From assembly GCA_021734905.1 (NCBI GenBank), contig JAIPIB010000007.1, forward strand, positions 1 to 42,779: a DNA stretch of 42,779 nt, in the 5' to 3' direction. This DNA comes from Minisyncoccota bacterium. GTDB taxonomy: Bacteria; Patescibacteriota; Minisyncoccia; Phycocordibacterales; UBA918. Shown here one piece after another: positions 19,171 to 27,316 of this stretch. Below the pieces are notes generated by a model. The model worked only from the letters and a program-made list of their open reading frames with translations, searched no databases and was not told the DNA's origin. The position numbers and the translations under genes are program-made. Numbering within the stretch: position 1 is the first letter of the stretch; the number at the start of each line of letters is the position of its first letter.

Positions 19171-21330
19171 ATGCCACATACAACTTCAGGAGCACATATT
19201 ACACACATCATTAAACGATCGGGGCGAAAAGTGCTCTACAGTAATGCCAAAATCAAACGTGCCATTGAAAAAGCTCTTCGTGCTACTGGTGAACATAAAA
19301 ATGGTGTTCCTGAAAAAGTCACCCGTGCAGTGGAATTCGATCTTGAGACTATTCTCAAAACTGACGCACAGTATGTGCCATCAGTTGAATCCGTCCAGGA
19401 CATGATTGAAAAAGAACTCATGAAAAATGGGTATCTTGAAACAGCAAAAGCCTACATCCTCTACCGCGAACAGCACGCACAAATTCGCCGAATGGTCCAA
19501 ACTGAGTCAATCGACCTTGTCGATCAGTACCTTGGCGTTGCGGACTGGCAAGTGAAAGAAAATAGCAACATGGCATTTTCTCTTCAAGGTCTCAATAACT
19601 ATATCGCGTCAGAGGTTAGTAAAAACTACTGGCTCAATAAAATATACCCTCCAGAAATTCGTGATGCACATCAAAGTGGTGACTTTCATATCCACGATCT
19701 TAATCTCCTTGCAGTTTACTGCGTTGGATGGGACCTTTATGATCTTCTCATGAGAGGATTTGGAGGTGTTCCAGGAAAGGTCCAGAGTAAGCCAGCAAAG
19801 CATCTCAAAACAGCTCTCGGGCAAGTTGTAAACTTTTTCTACACTCTTCAAGGAGAAGCCGCTGGTGCCCAAGCGTTTTCGAATGTTGATACGCTTCTTG
19901 CGCCATTCATATGGTATGACCATCTTTCATATGATGAAGTTAAGCAGACGCTTCAAGAATTTGTCTTCAATGTAAACATTCCCACTCGAGTTGGCTTCCA
20001 AACACCTTTTACCAATATTACCCTCGACTTAACTGTTCCAAAGCACTACGAAAAAATGCGAGTGATTGTTGGTGGAAAAGAGATGAAAGAGACATACGGA
20101 GACTTCAAGAAAGAGATGGATATGTTCAATAGAGCGTTCCTTGAAGTTATGAGCGAAGGAGATGCTTCTGGTCGCGTATTCACATTCCCTATTCCTACTT
20201 ACAATATAACTAAAGATTTTGACTGGGATAATGAGAATATATCAGCACTTTGGGAATCTGCTGCAAAATATGGTATTCCATATTTCTCAAACTTTGTAAA
20301 CTCCGACATGAGTCCAGATGATGCACGTTCAATGTGCTGCCGACTTCGTATCGACAATCGTGAACTGCAAAAGCGAGGTGGAGGACTCTTTGGAGCGAAC
20401 CCACTCACTGGATCAATTGGTGTGGTAACAGTAAATCTTCCTCGTCTTGGAAAAACGTCCAAAACAAAGGCTTCCTTTCTTAAGAACCTTGGAGAACTTA
20501 TGGATAACGCCCGTGATAGTCTCGAAATAAAGCGAAAAGTACTCGAGTCGATGACTGACAAAAACCTCTATCCATATACAAAATATTATCTCGAAAGCAT
20601 CAGAACAGCATTCGGCTCATACTGGAAGAATCACTTCTCTACTATCGGTCTTGTGGGTATGAATGAAGCGATTGCAAACCTACTCGGGACTGACATTACA
20701 TCACCAGAAGGTTCTAAATTTGCGGAAGATGTACTCGACTTCATGCGTACCCGTATAGCAGATTACCAAGAAGCGACGGGTAATAACTATAACCTTGAAG
20801 CAACACCTGCTGAAGGGACTTCATACCGCCTTGCCTTACTCGATCAAAAGCACTTCGATGGTATGATTTTTGCTAATGGAGTTGGTGAAGACACTGTGGA
20901 TCCCTACTATACAAATTCGACACATCTACCCGTACAGCATACTGATGATGTTTTTGAAATTCTTGAACTTCAGGATAATCTTCAAGCAAAATACACAGGC
21001 GGTACAGTTATTCATTTCTTCATTGGTGAGAGGATCCGCGATACAACAGCGGTAAAATCACTCGTGAAAAAAATCTGTACTGAATACCATCTCCCCTATT
21101 TCACTATCACACCAACATTTAGTGTCTGCATGACTCACGGATACCTACACGGAGAAGTCTTCAAATGTCCAACGTGTGATAGTGACTGTGAGGTGTACAC
21201 ACGGATAGTCGGGTATCTTCGTCCAGTTGAACAGTGGAATAAAGGTAAGAGAGCTGAATACGGAAATAGAAAACATGTTCAACCTGACGCTTTGGCGCTA
21301 CAGACAAAAATCGAGCAAATAACAACGTAA
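19171..21330 (+). CDS. nrdD: Anaerobic ribonucleoside-triphosphate reductase with N-terminal ATP-cone
   Basis: ATP-cone at the N-terminus, C-terminal Cys cluster (CPTC) and glycyl-radical motif RIVGYLRPV. Confidence 0.95.
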   Translation: MPHTTSGAHITHIIKRSGRKVLYSNAKIKRAIEKALRATGEHKNGVPEKVTRAVEFDLETILKTDAQYVPSVESVQDMIEKELMKNGYLETAKAYILYREQHAQIRRMVQTESIDLVDQYLGVADWQVKENSNMAFSLQGLNNYIASEVSKNYWLNKIYPPEIRDAHQSGDFHIHDLNLLAVYCVGWDLYDLLMRGFGGVPGKVQSKPAKHLKTALGQVVNFFYTLQGEAAGAQAFSNVDTLLAPFIWYDHLSYDEVKQTLQEFVFNVNIPTRVGFQTPFTNITLDLTVPKHYEKMRVIVGGKEMKETYGDFKKEMDMFNRAFLEVMSEGDASGRVFTFPIPTYNITKDFDWDNENISALWESAAKYGIPYFSNFVNSDMSPDDARSMCCRLRIDNRELQKRGGGLFGANPLTGSIGVVTVNLPRLGKTSKTKASFLKNLGELMDNARDSLEIKRKVLESMTDKNLYPYTKYYLESIRTAFGSYWKNHFSTIGLVGMNEAIANLLGTDITSPEGSKFAEDVLDFMRTRIADYQEATGNNYNLEATPAEGTSYRLALLDQKHFDGMIFANGVGEDTVDPYYTNSTHLPVQHTDDVFEILELQDNLQAKYTGGTVIHFFIGERIRDTTAVKSLVKKICTEYHLPYFTITPTFSVCMTHGYLHGEVFKCPTCDSDCEVYTRIVGYLRPVEQWNKGKRAEYGNRKHVQPDALALQTKIEQITT

Positions 21331-21336
21331 GCAAGT

Positions 21337-22020
21337 ATGCGAATAGGTGGACTCCAAAAAAACTCCCTCATTGATTATCCTGGGAAGATATCTGCCATCG
21401 TCTTTACTATAGGATGTAATTTTCACTGTCCTTATTGCCATAACCCCGAACTTGTCGACGAAACAGCCGATGAAATTTCTGCCGAGGGTGTTCTTGCTTT
21501 CCTTAAAAAAAGAGTGGGTCTTCTTGAAGCAGTAACTATTACTGGAGGAGAGCCTACTGTACAAACTGATTTGATCCCTTTTATCAAAAAGATAAAAGAA
21601 ATGGGCTTTTTGGTTAAACTAGATACGAACGGAACAAACCCTGAGATTGTTGAACAGCTACTTCATGCAGCGCTCGTTGACTACATAGCAATGGATATCA
21701 AATCCCCACTGGATTCCTATAGCGCGGCCGTAGGACGACCTGTCCCTATTGAGAAAGTCAAAAAAAGTATTGCCCTTATGATGAGAAACTCTGTACCATA
21801 TGAATTCAGGACAACTGTGGTAAAATCTCTTCTCTCTCCAGACGATATTATTCGTATTGGAGAAGTTATTAAAGGCGCCAAAACATACTATCTTCAAAAA
21901 TTTGTCCCAACAAAGACACTCAATCCAGCATTTCTTAAAAAGACGACGTATACAGACAGTGAATTTGAGGATATGAAGAATAGTTTGTCTGCATATGTAG
22001 ACAAATGCTATGTCAGATAA
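21337..22020 (+). CDS. nrdG: Anaerobic RNR activating radical-SAM protein
   Basis: CNFHCPYCHN CxxxCxxC motif, ITGGEP; 6 nt after nrdD. Confidence 0.9.
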   Translation: MRIGGLQKNSLIDYPGKISAIVFTIGCNFHCPYCHNPELVDETADEISAEGVLAFLKKRVGLLEAVTITGGEPTVQTDLIPFIKKIKEMGFLVKLDTNGTNPEIVEQLLHAALVDYIAMDIKSPLDSYSAAVGRPVPIEKVKKSIALMMRNSVPYEFRTTVVKSLLSPDDIIRIGEVIKGAKTYYLQKFVPTKTLNPAFLKKTTYTDSEFEDMKNSLSAYVDKCYVR

Positions 22021-23212
22021 CCTACCTATACCTACTAAGACAATATATCTTGATCATGCTGCGGCAACACCAGTCCGTCGTGAAGTAATTGATGTAATGC
22101 TCCCCTACTTCCAAACAATATACGGAAACCCGTCCTCTATACACCACGAAGGACGAAGAGCACTGGACACACTCACAAACGTTCGAGAGCAAGTTGCTGG
22201 CGTGCTTAATGTGATTCCATCAGAAATTATTTTTACCAGCTCAGGGACTGAAGCAAACAATCTGGCTATTTTTGGTATTGCGGAAGCCTACAGTTTTCAA
22301 GGAAAACACATTCTTATTTCTTCTATCGAGCACCCATCAGTACTGAGCGCAGGTGAGCAACTGGCAGAAAATGGTTTTGATGTTGAGTATATACCAGTGG
22401 ACACCTTTGGACGCATCGATGTTTTAGATACAATTTCACGTGTTCGCGATGACACAATCCTCATCTCTGTCATGCTGGCAAATAATGAAATAGGCACTGT
22501 GCAACCAATTTCTTCTCTCTCGCAAAAACTACGAGAATCTTTCCAAGAAAAAAACAGACCACTTCTCCATACCGATGCATGTCAGGCAACTGGACAACTC
22601 AACGTCTCCCCACACGACCTTGGTGTCGACCTCATGACTCTCAACAGCTCAAAAATTTACGGACCGAAAGGTGTTGGCATGTTATATTTACGCAGCGGTA
22701 CTTCTCTTACGCCACTCATTGTCGGTGGTGTCCAAGAATTAGGAAAACGAGCAGGGACAGAAAATCTCCCGGCACTTGTTGGATTTGCACAAGCACTCAG
22801 TCTTGCAATTAAAGAACGAGAGGGTACGTCTCTTTCATTTACAAAACTCAGAGATGGTTTCATAAAAGCATTGCAAAAAGAAATACCCGATGTACATATA
22901 AATGGACACCTTACAGAACGTCTTCCAAACAACATCCACATTTCTTTGCCATACATCGAAGGAGAGTCACTCGTTCTTCTTCTCGATACATACGGTATCT
23001 GCGCCTCAACAGGTTCTGCATGCAGCTCACACAGTCTTTCTCCCTCTCACGTACTTCGCGCCATAGGGCAACCAAATGAGATTATCCATGGAAGTCTGCG
23101 GTTTAGTATTGGAAATAAAACAACAGCTGATGACCTTACCCACACGACTCACTCCCTTGCTGTTTGTGCAGATCGACTCCGTAAAATATCCCCACTACCA
23201 TTACATATATGA
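22010..23212 (+). CDS. iscS: Cysteine desulfurase (NifS/IscS type, class V aminotransferase)
   Basis: HTDACQA, SSKIYGPKGVG (PLP Lys), STGSACSS (active Cys loop). Confidence 0.9.
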   Translation: MSDNLPIPTKTIYLDHAAATPVRREVIDVMLPYFQTIYGNPSSIHHEGRRALDTLTNVREQVAGVLNVIPSEIIFTSSGTEANNLAIFGIAEAYSFQGKHILISSIEHPSVLSAGEQLAENGFDVEYIPVDTFGRIDVLDTISRVRDDTILISVMLANNEIGTVQPISSLSQKLRESFQEKNRPLLHTDACQATGQLNVSPHDLGVDLMTLNSSKIYGPKGVGMLYLRSGTSLTPLIVGGVQELGKRAGTENLPALVGFAQALSLAIKEREGTSLSFTKLRDGFIKALQKEIPDVHINGHLTERLPNNIHISLPYIEGESLVLLLDTYGICASTGSACSSHSLSPSHVLRAIGQPNEIIHGSLRFSIGNKTTADDLTHTTHSLAVCADRLRKISPLPLHI

Positions 23213-23673
23213 AAGAGAATGATCACACAACACCAGATGTAACTTCATGCAGCGGCACCGCTTCGTGGCTTTACAATGACATAGTAAAAGATCATTTTTT
23301 TAATCCGAGGAATATTCTCATTGACGATGCTTCCCATGAAAGCGATGGAGTTGGAGTTGTTGGGAGTCCTGCCTGTGGCGATATGATGGTTGTATGGATT
23401 ACTGTTGACGAATCAACAAAAACTATTATCGACTGTAAGTGGCGGACCTTTGGCTGTGCCTCAGCTATTGCTTCCACATCAATGATGTCTCTCATGGTTA
23501 CTGAGAATGGTGGAATGACATTGCATGAAGCAAAACATCTTACACCTGAAGCAATTCTTGAGCGCCTTGGTGGTCTACCAGATCGAAAATACCACTGCTC
23601 TGTACTCGGGCACCACGCTCTCAGAGAGGCAGTCTTAGATTTTGAAAAAAATTTATCACAAGAAACAGTATGA
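23209..23673 (+). CDS. iscU: IscU/NifU-N-type Fe-S scaffold
   Basis: Three scaffold Cys in GSPACGDMM, FGCASAIAS, KYHCSVLG; 4-nt overlap with iscS. Confidence 0.9.
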   Translation: MKENDHTTPDVTSCSGTASWLYNDIVKDHFFNPRNILIDDASHESDGVGVVGSPACGDMMVVWITVDESTKTIIDCKWRTFGCASAIASTSMMSLMVTENGGMTLHEAKHLTPEAILERLGGLPDRKYHCSVLGHHALREAVLDFEKNLSQETV

Positions 23674-24383
23674 ACGAAACATGCCCCACAACATACACAT
23701 GGTCAATTATAGACGTTATCGACGAAGCTCCTCGAGTACGTTCTCTTATTCTTAAAGCAAGAGACACACGTCCAGATTTTATATCAGGCCAATACCTTAC
23801 AGTTCTCCTCTCTGGGTATGAACCAGCAGAGGGAAAATCCTATAGCATTTCAAGTAGTGGAGACGAACTACTTGTACGACTCACGATTAAAGAAATGGGG
23901 GCATTCTCTAAAGCACTCTATGCTCACAACAAAGGTGACACACTCACCACAAGTGCACCATACGGTTTTTTCTATCCAGAACAAACGAGCAATCACGATC
24001 TCGTTTTTATAGCTGGAGGAATTGGTATAACACCAAACATAAGCATCATCAAAAAATTATGTTCTGGAGAGTACCCTAAAAAGATCACACTTTTCTATTC
24101 AAACAAAACCATCGCTGACATAATCTTTAAAGAAGAACTTGATGTCTTGCAAAAAAAATATCCTCTCTTTAATGTCATTCATCACATCACACAAGAGGAG
24201 GATGCACCACCACCTTTCGTAAAAGGACGCATGACTGGTGTCTCAATCTTAAAAAATATTTCTGACATTCAAAAAACCGAACTCTTCATCTGCGGCTCAA
24301 TCGACTTTACCAAAAATCTTTGGAGAGAACTTCGTGAGGAAGGAATACCGAATACACAACTTTATACTGAAGGATTTTTTTAA
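23670..24383 (+). CDS. FNR-fold FAD/NAD(P)-binding oxidoreductase (PyrK/ferredoxin-reductase-like, no Fe-S domain)
   Basis: GKSYSISS (RxYS-type FAD motif), FIAGGIGITP (NAD motif), C-terminal ICGS; 4-nt overlap with iscU. Confidence 0.8.
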   Translation: MNETCPTTYTWSIIDVIDEAPRVRSLILKARDTRPDFISGQYLTVLLSGYEPAEGKSYSISSSGDELLVRLTIKEMGAFSKALYAHNKGDTLTTSAPYGFFYPEQTSNHDLVFIAGGIGITPNISIIKKLCSGEYPKKITLFYSNKTIADIIFKEELDVLQKKYPLFNVIHHITQEEDAPPPFVKGRMTGVSILKNISDIQKTELFICGSIDFTKNLWRELREEGIPNTQLYTEGFF

Positions 24384-24392
24384 ATAAAAAAG

Positions 24393-24416
24393 AGGGTACC
24401 TCCGAAGAGATACCCT
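24393..24416. terminator. Bidirectional terminator hairpin between convergent genes
   Basis: AGGGTA-C-CTC-CGAA-GAG-A-TACCCT; the minus-strand side is followed by CTTTTTT. Confidence 0.6.
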
Positions 24417-24436
24417 ATTGCTTTTCGTTTCGCCGA

Positions 24437-24676
24437 TTACTGCTGTGCGGGCGGTGGTGTTTTCTGTTCATCCTTCCTCAAAAGAAAGGCCGGACCTCTG
24501 TTTCCTTCTGGCCAAACAAGCATTGCATCACCGATGCAATAGCTATTCGACATATTGGGAATACCTCGATGCACCGTTCGTTGTTCAAAAGGAATACCTG
24601 ATGGACTGATTTTCATCTGAGCACCATTAACCTTTACTTCCACCCATTTCGGTGCCGGGACAAGCGTTTTACCCAT
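24437..24676 (-). CDS. Small hypothetical protein (79 aa), paralog A of the G+C-rich islet
   Basis: SD GGAG 6-7 nt upstream of ATG at 24676. It has its own promoter-like element, leader and terminator, and shares VxVNG and RGIP motifs with 24862-25197. Confidence 0.65.
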   Translation of the reverse strand: MGKTLVPAPKWVEVKVNGAQMKISPSGIPFEQRTVHRGIPNMSNSYCIGDAMLVWPEGNRGPAFLLRKDEQKTPPPAQQ

Positions 24677-24699
24677 TAAGTTCTCCAATTTGAAGTTTA

Positions 24700-24725
24700 A
24701 GAACATCGGCTTACCTGAGCCGAAG
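24700..24725 (-). promoter_or_regulatory. Conserved 26-nt 5' leader with 6-bp stem / CAGGUA loop (copy 1)
   Basis: AGAACATCGGCTTACCTGAGCCGAAG is identical to 25240-25265. The minus-strand RNA CUUCGGCU-CAGGUA-AGCCGAUGUUCU begins 4-5 nt after the -10 element. Confidence 0.6.
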
Positions 24726-24730
24726 GTGTC

Positions 24731-24758
24731 ATCCTACCGTAATAAACATACTTGTCAA
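24731..24758 (-). promoter_or_regulatory. Putative sigma70-type promoter of paralog A
   Basis: Minus strand TTGACA (24753-24758) - 16 nt - TAGGAT (24731-24736). Confidence 0.5.
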
Positions 24759-24798
24759 GACATACCTACAATTTCACTCATAATGTAAGCCATAAAAT

Positions 24799-24831
24799 AA
24801 AAAACGGGCAACCTTTTGGAGGGGTTGCCCG
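24799..24831 (-). terminator. Intrinsic terminator of paralog B
   Basis: CGGGCAACC (24805-24813) / GGTTGCCCG (24823-24831), 9-bp GC-rich stem; minus strand followed by TTTTTT. Confidence 0.8.
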
Positions 24832-24861
24832 CTGTTGTGGATATCGGCCGAAGCCGGTTAG

Positions 24862-25197
24862 TCAGGAGGTCGTGATCTCGGTACCAGCCTTGAGCTGGAC
24901 CGTGTGCCCTTCGGATTCCAAGAAGGTCTTGGCAAAGACACGGAGCTCATCCTTGGTGCCGGCCATCATCCCCGACTTGCCGTTCAACAAGATCATCGAC
25001 TCGCCCTGCGGAATGCCGCGAATGCTTTTGACCTCGCGGCCGTCGACAGTTCCATGGTAATCGGTGAATTTCGCGCCATGGAGGCTCTGTGCCGAAATTG
25101 CAGTCTTGTGGCCATTTCCATTGACGTCAACGTTGACATGAGTCGCGGCGATGCGACGATTACCTTGGCCGGATCTGGCGTTATTTCTGGTTTGCAT
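24862..25197 (-). CDS. Small hypothetical protein (111 aa), paralog B of the G+C-rich islet
   Basis: SD AGGAG 8 nt upstream of the ATG; own promoter-like element, leader and terminator. A hand count of line 24901-24960 gives 34/60 G+C, versus 18/60 in line 27001-27060. Confidence 0.7.
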   Translation of the reverse strand: MQTRNNARSGQGNRRIAATHVNVDVNGNGHKTAISAQSLHGAKFTDYHGTVDGREVKSIRGIPQGESMILLNGKSGMMAGTKDELRVFAKTFLESEGHTVQLKAGTEITTS

Positions 25198-25239
25198 CGG
25201 TGATTCTCCTGTTTGATTTTTGATTTGGGCGGATGCCCG

Positions 25240-25265
25240 AGAACATCGGCTTACCTGAGCCGAAG
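25240..25265 (-). promoter_or_regulatory. Conserved 26-nt 5' leader hairpin (copy 2)
   Basis: Identical to 24700-24725. Confidence 0.6.
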
Positions 25266-25269
25266 CACT

Positions 25270-25298
25270 ACACTATCGTCTCTTTCATTTTTTGTCAA
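25270..25298 (-). promoter_or_regulatory. Putative sigma70-type promoter of paralog B
   Basis: Minus strand TTGACA (25293-25298) - 17 nt - TAGTGT (25270-25275). Confidence 0.45.
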
Positions 25299-25395
25299 CG
25301 AATTATAAGACTTTTATAGATAATATGGCGTTTTTCCGAAAGACCTTTCAATGTAGCATTGACGATGTAACGTAATTTTCTGATAAAGGGTTTAA

Positions 25396-25440
25396 AAACA
25401 AGCAAAAAGCACCCAAATGGGTGCTTTTTGCTTGTTTTTG
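25396..25440. terminator. Strong hairpin terminator (21-bp perfect stem including A/T runs)
   Basis: AAAAACAAGCAAAAAGCACCC-AAAT-GGGTGCTTTTTGCTTGTTTTT; 8 nt downstream of the stop at 25449 on the minus strand. Confidence 0.8.
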
Positions 25441-25448
25441 TTTTCTAC

Positions 25449-25688
25449 TTATTCAGCTGCGGGTGCTTCAGTTTCTGTTTCTACTGCATCTGTTGCAGGC
25501 ATATCTGTTGCCGGAGCATCAGTTGTAGTAACTTCCTCGGGGGTTACTGTTTCTGTTGTTTCATCTGTCATAGTCGTGATTGGTGTTAAAACTGATAATC
25601 CGACCAGCTGTGAGTATACCCTATTTGAACACACATTCCAAGTAAATAAAGGGCTTTTCTTACTTTGAATGAATCGCCGGCATTTCAT
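25449..25688 (-). CDS. Possible small protein with a basic N-terminus and T/E/A/P/D-rich acidic tail (start uncertain: 25688 or 25571)
   Basis: SD AGGAG 9 nt upstream of ATG 25688; dedicated terminator. The low-complexity sequence makes coding status uncertain. Confidence 0.35.
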   Translation of the reverse strand: MKCRRFIQSKKSPLFTWNVCSNRVYSQLVGLSVLTPITTMTDETTETVTPEEVTTTDAPATDMPATDAVETETEAPAAE

Positions 25689-26934: not shown

Positions 26935-27001
26935 ATTATTTTAATTGTACGCTTTTATGACCCCTCTGTTCACTTTGTTGGGGACAAATAAAATATGACG
27001 C

Positions 27002-27316
27002 TTATTTTAAAAGTTCCTTTTCAAGTCGAATCATTTCATCCAAAAATGCTTTCGAAAGGTCTATCTTATATTCAACAGACAGAAGGAGTGTTGCCCACAA
27101 AATCTCAGCAAGTTCGTGTTCAAGATTTTTATTTAAATCAGAGACTTCTCTAAAACCTTCCTTAGCTAAAACAAGTCTTCCTAAGTCACCAACATCAGAT
27201 ACAAGTCCTGCATATGTTTCTTCTGCGGTCCATGCTTTATACGACTTCTTCTTCTCAAAGTCAGAATATAAGCCTTTAATATGAAGAGCTTTTTTTGTTA
27301 AATCTGGAATATTCAT
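27002..27316 (-). CDS. MazG-like all-alpha nucleotide pyrophosphohydrolase
   Basis: 104 aa; AEETYAGLVSDVGDL and EHELAEILW...DL acidic helix motifs; ATGA overlap with the upstream ORF. Confidence 0.7.
   Translation of the reverse strand: MNIPDLTKKALHIKGLYSDFEKKKSYKAWTAEETYAGLVSDVGDLGRLVLAKEGFREVSDLNKNLEHELAEILWATLLLSVEYKIDLSKAFLDEMIRLEKELLK

Follow-up and report, generated by a model that had tools for sequence, protein, structure and literature searches.

Two small genes on the minus strand of a Minisyncoccota contig (JAIPIB010000007.1, assembly GCA_021734905.1) were analysed together with the leader element that they have in common. The whole stretch of 42,779 nucleotides is referred to as the window. 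From 25298 to 24385 (-), two complete monocistronic units are arranged in tandem, the first with an open reading frame (ORF) of 111 aa and the second with an ORF of 79 aa. Both units contain the same 26-nt sequence (CTTCGGCTCAGGTAAGCCGATGTTCT, hereafter the 26-mer) shortly after the promoter. It encloses a hairpin, termed P1 (UCGGCU-CAGGUA-AGCCGA; 6-bp stem, 6-nt loop), which is part of the minimum-free-energy structure of both leaders and has a free energy of -7.9 kcal/mol alone. The 26-mer has exactly 2 matches in the 42.8-kb window, even with 3 mismatches allowed (0 expected by chance). Perfect TTGACA-N16-18-TAnnnT sites occur 4 times in the whole window, 2 of them at the two cassettes.

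The promoter of the 111-aa gene (25270..25298, -) is composed of a -35 box TTGACA (25298-25293), a 17-nt spacer and a -10 box TAGTGT (25275-25270). Copy 1 of the 26-mer (25240..25265, -) is located 4 nt past the -10 box, with P1 at 25263-25246, and scored 18.8 bits with the covariance model (CM) R1. Its last bases, UGUUCU, open an element that is BoxA-like or pyrimidine-rich. A second hairpin, P2 (GGGC-AUCC-GCCC; 25227..25238, -), lies inside a 22-nt stretch 3' of P1 that is identical in the orthologous locus L001. A CA-rich unstructured spacer leads to the Shine-Dalgarno (SD) sequence AGGAG (25206..25210, -). The gene (24862..25197, -; ATG at 25197) codes for a small basic protein (isoelectric point (pI) 9.8) and has a G+C content (GC) of 0.56, with 0.69 at third codon positions (GC3). 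After the stop codon, a GC-rich hairpin CCGGC-UUCG-GCCGA ('CCGGCG box'; 24844..24857, -), which is kept in L001, is followed by an intrinsic terminator (24797..24830, -; GGGCAACC-CCUCCAAAA-GGUUGCCC, then U6).

For the 79-aa gene, the promoter (24731..24758, -) has a -35 box TTGACA (24758-24753), a 16-nt spacer and a -10 box TAGGAT (24736-24731). Copy 2 of the 26-mer (24700..24725, -) lies 5 nt past the -10 box and contains P1 at 24723-24706 (CM R1, 23.2 bits). P1 is followed by the BoxA-like sequence UGUUCUUAAAC (2 mismatches to GYTCTTTAANA), and UAAACUUCAAAUU is found between the 26-mer and the SD sequence GGAG (24683..24686, -). The gene (24437..24676, -; ATG at 24676; GC 0.47, GC3 0.40) codes for a divergent paralog without the C-terminal helix described below. 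Its intrinsic terminator (24385..24416, -) reads AGGGUAUCUC-UUCG-GAGGUACCCU (hairpin 24416-24393), then a U-run.

The 26-mer pair (24700-24725 and 25240-25265), promoters, ORFs, hairpin, SD sequences and terminators had been described in an initial annotation of the window, and all were confirmed where it had placed them. Its hand counts of G+C (34/60 in 24901-24960, 18/60 in 27001-27060) were exact. A dispersed repeat of the repetitive extragenic palindrome (REP) or miniature inverted-repeat transposable element (MITE) type, which would have spoken against a role at gene starts, was rejected: only 2 copies are present in 42.8 kb, both promoter-proximal, and they have no flanking repeats. The exact 23-nt core of the 26-mer was found neither in viral contigs nor in metagenome contigs of the Joint Genome Institute (JGI); therefore, it is not a widespread repeat. 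Direct or inverted repeats flanking the window cassettes, as hallmarks of a mobile element, were not found.

In word-indexed protein searches, one relative of the 111-aa protein was detected (P0002, 86% identity, on the 1.1-kb locus L001) and none of the 79-aa protein. Between the 111-aa gene and L001, the core contains 31 synonymous and 11 non-synonymous codon differences, which marks the ORF as a real gene on which purifying selection acts. HMMER, run exhaustively against 1.84 billion representatives, yielded 13 proteins at E <=0.001, 10 of which are small (86-117 aa). The conserved pattern of the family is V.V..G....I....L......HHG.T..G..V.S......G.S.I....G....T.DE.EVFA..FL...G.TV. Family proteins are mostly basic (pI 9-10) and have sizes of about 60-130 aa. 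An AlphaFold (AF2) model from 11 sequences consists of a beta-rich domain and a C-terminal helix, with a predicted local distance difference test score (pLDDT) of 77; with 2 sequences, pLDDT was 50.

The two window proteins had been taken for diverged paralogs because of motifs shared by eye. A direct BLASTP comparison was not significant (E 0.29), but paralogy was borne out by comparison of the 79-aa protein with the family profile (hhalign: E 3.1e-6, probability 88%, 60 columns; hmmsearch: 13.4 bits) and with the member P0009 (BLASTP, 34 bits). The match spans the N-terminal strand and the HxG...G.S.I core and ends where the family C-terminal helix begins. Based on the profile match, the window genes are therefore ancient, very distant paralogs. 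A named family, which the initial annotation had hoped to obtain from profile and fold searches, was not found for either protein by sequence. Neither has a Pfam match, and NCBIfam, PHROGs and PADLOC gave nothing below E 0.007. The best PDB match by sequence had E 0.13 for the family. Foldseek with the predicted model of pLDDT 77 gave best E-values of 0.3 (PDB) and 0.14 (viral folds in BFVD). A GTDB genome scan with the close 111-aa alignment returned no relative, and a literature search for this protein family or a leader motif described for bacteria of the candidate phyla radiation (CPR) found nothing relevant. As judged from sequence, these appear to be rare, previously undescribed small proteins, so far almost only in Patescibacteria/CPR-type metagenome assemblies.

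For comparison of leaders, eight loci (L001-L008) were fetched by protein similarity alone; besides P0002, they contain seven further homologs that are 27-47% identical to the 111-aa protein. In 7 of the 8 (L001-L007, G+C 50-64%), a perfect TTGACA, 16-17 nt and TAnnnT were located upstream of the family gene. A hairpin starts 6-9 nt past the -10 box, with the arms UCGRCY/RGYCGA, or GUCGCGC/GCAYGAC in L002 and L004. Its loops of 4-7 nt have unrelated sequences. The leader was missing only from L008, a locus of 652 bp. Gene 1 of L039 likewise has TTGACA(/C)-16/17-TAnnnT, followed by a UCG...CGA hairpin. Since these loci were found by protein only, the common promoter geometry and hairpin arms constitute independent evidence for a family-wide element. 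Gene neighbours of the family gene were different in every homolog locus compared. Over all 25 instances of P1 collected, the distance between the -10 hexamer and P1 was 6-9 nt.

Promoter and P1 were also searched for as a combined pattern. Applied to one genome per GTDB species, a loose version produced at least 119 matches with ~100 expected by chance. As this first pattern was too loose, only matches accompanied by a -10 box and by a small ORF downstream were retained. Among the matches listed, those with -10 box, SD sequence and small ORF were almost all from metagenome-assembled genomes (MAGs) of Patescibacteria (Paceibacterota, Parcubacteria, Liptonbacteria, Moraniibacteriota, Saccharibacteria and 'Patescibacteria group'). 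A stricter version gave 16 matches in JGI metagenomes with ~2 expected, by our own estimate of the information content of the pattern. At least 8 of the 16 precede family members, distant family branches, or a gene adjoining one. Because the family is so rare, the association of motif and family is not due to chance. By this association, the window itself probably also belongs to a Patescibacteria genome. Further hairpin copies, which the initial annotation had proposed to look for, exist in Patescibacteria MAGs and in JGI metagenomes, among them copies linked to family genes. Its claim that the leader itself is under selection was upheld by the homologous promoter and hairpin in front of 27-47%-identical relatives at seven other loci and by motif searches that recover family genes. 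Sequence comparison shows the 26-mer to be the form that a genuine control element, specific to the family and of putative function, takes in this window.

Conservation extends to the 3' ends of the cassettes. Of 23 family genes, 16 have a GC-rich hairpin of the CCGGCG type directly 3' of the stop codon (background 10%), the pattern having been chosen post hoc. In the window, boxes of the type CCGGCG/UCGGCG at 24844-24857 and 24425-24436 resemble the 5' arm of P1. The 111-aa gene and the Liptonbacteria family gene in L074 have nearly the same terminator. The stem of the 111-aa terminator is common with L119, and its loop (CCUCCAAA; anti-SD-like ACCCCUCCAAA) with L002 and L004. These likenesses exist despite proteins that are only about 30% identical.

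The two window paralogs are 100% identical over the 26-mer, but 43-59% identical over the promoter spacers, the DNA upstream and the downstream untranslated region (UTR). Compared with the ortholog L001, P1 is 62%, the rest of the UTR 86% and the coding sequence (CDS) 79% identical; P1 is thus the least conserved part. Therefore, P1 of the 111-aa gene matches that of its resident neighbour and not that of its own ortholog. A similar arrangement is present in L039, a Paceibacterota MAG, in which the family gene is followed by a 59-aa gene; both genes have their own promoters and an identical P1 (TCGACCCGAAAGGCCGATTT). L143, a syntenic relative of L039, also has two leaders, the second of which was found with CM R1 (29.8 bits). 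The P1s of L143 differ in loop length (6 vs 5 nt) and in one stem base. Its second protein of 60 aa aligns with the family C-terminal helix (E 1e-4). The tandem cassettes of L039 (1850-2660) and L143 (2400-3200, -) are located downstream of a conserved GIY-YIG/SET-domain gene, and their second genes code for mini-proteins of 59-60 aa that are reduced to the family's N-terminal FVP strand and C-terminal helix.

From these comparisons, the homogenisation of P1 calls for one of two causes: conversion over a very short tract, or selection for a match to a genome-specific partner. In the first case, the 26-nt identity might be a short gene-conversion tract with no function of its own, and P1 a generic hairpin of highly expressed messages. 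The two copies of the 26-mer are only 540 bp apart, and P1s are identical in L039, but not in its relative L143, all of which would suit conversion. So would the secE-nusG-rplK promoter (TTGACG-16-TATACT) that adjoins the family gene in L002 (10432-10500) and L004 (4268-4330): an unrelated 5' hairpin (AAGAGCCC-GCA-GGGCUCUU) with a U-run begins 9 nt later, and promoter-proximal hairpins may be common in genomes of this type. However, the flanks of the 26-mer (43-59% identity) have no homology to support conversion, and the UCG...CGA arms are conserved in all protein-derived loci over protein identities of 27-47%. We consider an explanation by conversion of a generic hairpin very unlikely.

When 22 full leaders were folded, P1 formed in the minimum-free-energy structure of about 20, in each case at the very 5' terminus. 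Behind it, as a rule, came a stable P2, then a CA-rich spacer without structure, then AGGAG. By analogy, this order would be the architecture of stable, efficiently translated messages. The free energy of P1 was on average -9 kcal/mol (range -3.8 to -13.2). In 17 of 24 instances, A or G precedes UCG on the 5' side and faces an invariant U. Double changes were found at two P1 pairs, from C-G to U-A at pair 6 and from G-C to A-U at pair 4. The spacing of the arms is 3, 4, 5, 6 or 7 nt across loci, and 6 and 5 nt in the two L143 leaders.

The reading that we prefer, tentatively and with confidence somewhat short of even, is that P1 forms a base-paired mRNA 5' end, which would protect against 5'-end-dependent decay and would probably serve as a shared recognition site. 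A cassette begins with a consensus sigma-70-type promoter (TTGACA, 16-17 nt, TAnnnT) and has a predicted transcript start 0-3 nt before P1, which has the form UCGRCY-loop (3-7 nt)-RGYCGA. A second hairpin and/or a pyrimidine-rich BoxA-like stretch comes next, then an unstructured CA-rich spacer with a strong SD sequence and the small ORF. The cassette ends with the GC-rich hairpin directly after the stop codon and the intrinsic terminator. Acting on RNA, P1 would shield the mRNA from 5'-end-dependent decay, and the messages would be abundant and stable. It would also be the common site by which one trans-acting factor could handle both paralogs. A recognition site is proposed because the stem is conserved across classes in its sequence as well as in its shape, and is identical in both window leaders.

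Several results weigh against this reading. Covariation in P1 was not significant, with 86.9% of cells paired compared to 85.7% in shuffles (89/500) and a covariation score at 30/500. Pair 4, the freely varying stem position, is G-C, G-U or A-U, but is unpaired in 8 of 24 instances, mostly as A.C. This leaves the genomes concerned with a weak P1 (-2.4 to -4.4 kcal/mol). Arms that are conserved in sequence but tolerate a mismatch point to recognition by a putative factor rather than to a purely thermodynamic stabiliser. Homogenisation does not hold everywhere, since the P1s of L143 are not identical, and simple gene conversion may account for it. In addition, P1 instances derived from pattern searches are biased to the motif by construction.

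A factor could also act on DNA. TCGRCY...RGYCGA would then be an operator over the transcription start, occupied by a repressor that co-regulates the small genes. The arm sequence is conserved, yet pairing at stem position 4 is not maintained, as would be expected of an operator. Roadblock repressors typically act at such a location (+1 to +20), and similar palindromes are present before TetR-type genes in the unrelated L133 and L137. On the other hand, half-site spacing varies between 3 and 7 nt across cassettes and between 5 and 6 nt within L143. An RNA loop therefore fits, and a dimeric DNA-binding protein does not. The A or G 5' of UCG that faces a fixed U (17/24) also fits A-U and G-U pairs of RNA, or a purine start, and not a DNA palindrome, and no regulator gene is linked to the family in the homolog loci. 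Given this, we strongly doubt that P1 is a DNA operator.

P1 and its U-rich tail could instead be a promoter-proximal intrinsic terminator or attenuator. Most transcripts would then stop after about 25-30 nt, unless a factor blocked formation of the hairpin. A simple terminator scan does flag P1 of the 79-aa gene, and 16 of 25 instances have >=5 U within 8 nt 3' of the stem. However, the pattern used in the collection scans required ATKTT 3' of the stem. Of the 10 unbiased instances derived from proteins, no more than 3 have >=5 U, and the tails in the window read UGUUCUCG and UGUUCUUA. The U's beside the stem often pair with A/G 5' of P1 and so lengthen the stem, and the predicted transcript has no RNA upstream of P1 from which an antiterminator could form. 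We regard attenuation at P1 as very unlikely.

A different role is suggested by the sequence that follows P1. In many leaders, (A)UUGUUCUUU(C)AAUC (the box is also written UGUUCUUU) occurs 15-25 nt before the SD sequence, and in the window the BoxA-like element abuts P1, so that the 26-mer supplies its start with the final six bases. In gamma-proteobacteria, BoxA has the consensus GYTCTTTAANA, and BoxA elements of genes other than rRNA genes lie no more than 50 nt from the start codon (Baniulyte et al. 2017, PMC5725501). P1 and the stretch of the UGUUCUU(U)AA type might thus be a loading site for Nus factors (NusB/NusE), with hairpin and BoxA as in rRNA operon (rrn) leaders. The outcome would be processive antitermination or, as for E. 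coli suhB, Nus-dependent translational repression of the small genes. With <=2 mismatches to GYTCTTTAANA, 7 of 25 leaders match (1.0 expected; 0/300 shuffle sets), none of them perfectly; TGYTCTTT with <=1 mismatch is present in 9 of 25 (0.9 expected). The leader of the 79-aa gene has GTTCTTAAACT directly after P1 and 28 nt before AUG, with 2 mismatches. Small and basic proteins would also be expected of ribosome- or transcription-associated factors. However, the element is restricted to about a third of leaders; that of the 111-aa gene matches only as TGTTCTCG (4 mismatches), and its ortholog is worse. The counts overstate independence, as the leaders are related by descent. Moreover, the consensus is gamma-proteobacterial and may not be that of Patescibacteria, and pyrimidine-rich stretches are commonplace in leaders. 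We therefore judge a Nus loading site to be unlikely.

In Dehalococcoidia (L020, L021, L041, L051, L053, L121), the pattern matched the rRNA operon promoter (TTGACA-17-TATGAT), which is followed by a hairpin AAUCGGCC-UUU-GGCCGAU-GUU and a BoxA-like CCUUAACAAG, ~70 nt before the 16S 5' end. Similar hairpins precede tRNA genes in L049 and L073. About 2 such coincidences are expected by chance, hence nothing is concluded from them on an rrn-type leader. A further group of matches (L128, L138, L141, L072; G+C ~64%) has a conserved promoter and hairpin (TTGACAGGCCCGCGGCGGCCCGGTAGATTTGCGCA-TCGGCC-GGTTGC-GGYCGA-TTTT) with no obvious downstream ORF. One record of this group is an Achromobacter genome, and the element may be an unrelated small RNA or leader.

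For further classification of P1, the window and 28 related loci were compared with Rfam 15. No model reached the gathering score in the window, and only tRNAs and RNase P did so in the related loci. Within 24350-25450, sub-threshold matches were of terminator type, none of them on P1. A target of the CsrA/RsmA type was rejected, as the loops (CAGGUA, UAAGGAU, AGGU, AUGC, GACC, CGAAA, others) contain no conserved GGA. The complement of the loop CAGGUA, sought in the window as a trans or 3' partner, was found only at the P1 sites themselves. Sequestration of the SD sequence by UGUUCU-GGAGAA is part of the minimum-free-energy fold of both window leaders, but was rejected as a family feature: SD pairing across 22 leaders was 0.43, compared to 0.40 in shuffles (p 0.63).

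Within the 26-mer, the 3' arm of P1 carries an AUG (25244-25246 and 24704-24706, -). In the leader of the 79-aa gene it is in frame with the gene, giving an ORF of 89 aa. In that of the 111-aa gene it starts an upstream ORF (uORF) of 21 codons (MFSGIRPNQKSNRRITDANQK) that overlaps the real start. The equivalent frame in L001 enters the gene from an upstream TTG, and GUG is found where the window has AUG. Perfect complementarity over 13 nt was noted between the initiation region of the 111-aa gene (25192-25204, AUCACCGAUGCAA) and a hairpin arm in the 79-aa ORF (24527-24539, UUGCAUCGGUGAU). The number of such pairs expected in 1.9 kb is about 0.03; either chance or an interaction between the mRNAs could explain this one.

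The cassettes had initially been described as a G+C-rich islet of possible horizontal origin. GC3 of the 32 other window genes is 0.24-0.49. The 111-aa gene (0.69) is outside this range and the 79-aa gene (0.40) inside, so that the description holds for the first gene and not for the second. The 111-aa gene was probably imported, because its 86%-identical ortholog is on a contig of 52% G+C and has a GC3 of 0.81. However, family genes are richer in G+C than their surroundings in 8 of 8 protein-derived loci, and simple recent transfer is therefore not the sole explanation of the composition. Accordingly, the notion of horizontal acquisition was retained for one gene only, and its high GC3 may reflect both import and a codon or composition trait common to the family. 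The second gene, of 79 aa, is resident: a paralog with host-typical GC3 and without the family C-terminal helix.

Just upstream of both cassettes, a small ORF (25449-25688, -) has an acidic, low-complexity C-terminal tail of 40 aa rich in T/E/A/P, with internal DNA repeats (D3, D5) in the tail; no Pfam match was obtained. Between this ORF and the cassette segment, a perfect 22-nt inverted repeat (AAAAACAAGCAAAAAGCACCCA/TGGGTGCTTTTTGCTTGTTTTT; 25394-25439) with T/A runs on both sides resembles a bidirectional terminator. Sub-threshold Rfam matches at this site (SR1 antisense, Phe leader, others) are terminator look-alikes only. On the other side, a co-directional gene run (19171-24383, +) adjoins the cassettes and is convergent with them. 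It contains NrdD (anaerobic ribonucleotide reductase, ATP-cone) and an FNR-like FAD/NAD oxidoreductase, both Pfam-checked. A putative NrdG radical-SAM activase (CxxxCxxC motif), a putative NifS (cysteine desulfurase) and NifU were judged by sequence.

Stem-loops within a few nt of the 5' end (E. coli ompA; B. subtilis aprE and ermC) protect bacterial mRNAs from RNase E- or RNase J-type attack. Like these stabilisers, P1 is a GC-rich hairpin within ~3 nt of the 5' end (here a predicted one) behind a strong promoter, and a single-stranded leader with a strong SD sequence comes next. To our knowledge, such stabilisers act by structure alone, are not sequence-conserved across phyla and are not tied to one protein family. 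P1, in contrast, has conserved arms (UCGRCY/RGYCGA), tolerates A.C at one stem position and is homogenised between paralogs. Short 5' UTR elements common to paralogs of small proteins are found in the cold box of csp genes and in operators of ribosomal-protein leaders. P1 likewise lies near the 5' end of the UTR in paralogous small-protein genes and is conserved with the family, but has no sequence or structural similarity to either. Unlike in autogenous control, it does not co-vary with the 111-aa protein (protein 86%, P1 62% identical to the ortholog). With rrn boxB-boxA and the suhB BoxA (PMC5725501), the leaders have in common a hairpin followed by a GYUCUUUAA-like box <50 nt from the start codon. 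They differ in that the match is imperfect (2 mismatches for the 79-aa gene, 4 for the 111-aa gene) and confined to about a third of leaders. A conserved non-coding element that is tied to one gene family across genomes is reminiscent of cis-regulatory candidates in Rfam. P1 is, however, very short, has no significant covariation and no Rfam 15 match. The anatomy of the cassettes is conventional, and the element is not a demonstrated member of the stabiliser, csp/ribosomal-protein or rrn/suhB BoxA classes.

Small ORFs of unknown function make up a large share of genes in Patescibacteria/CPR bacteria, and we know of almost no regulatory elements in this group that are known from experiments. 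Against this background, the cassette with promoter, 5' hairpin, optional BoxA-like box, post-stop hairpin and terminator is a compact expression unit conserved across classes. Its leader provides a handle for finding a very divergent superfamily of small proteins that is barely seen by sequence searches. The predicted transcription start and leader could be checked in existing metatranscriptomes, and first genetic systems in these bacteria could take over the cassette as a ready expression module. In a bolder version, which we consider quite unlikely, the cassette would define a dedicated post-transcriptional regulon of Patescibacteria. Together with the BoxA-like box, P1 would act as an operator of the rrn-leader kind, to which a lineage-specific factor or the Nus complex is recruited. 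The small basic proteins would be hitherto undescribed components associated with ribosomes or transcription, and their genes would be kept in step by homogenisation of the operator within each genome. Should P1 indeed be a factor-binding operator or a Nus site, this would be the first regulon of such kind described in the CPR radiation.

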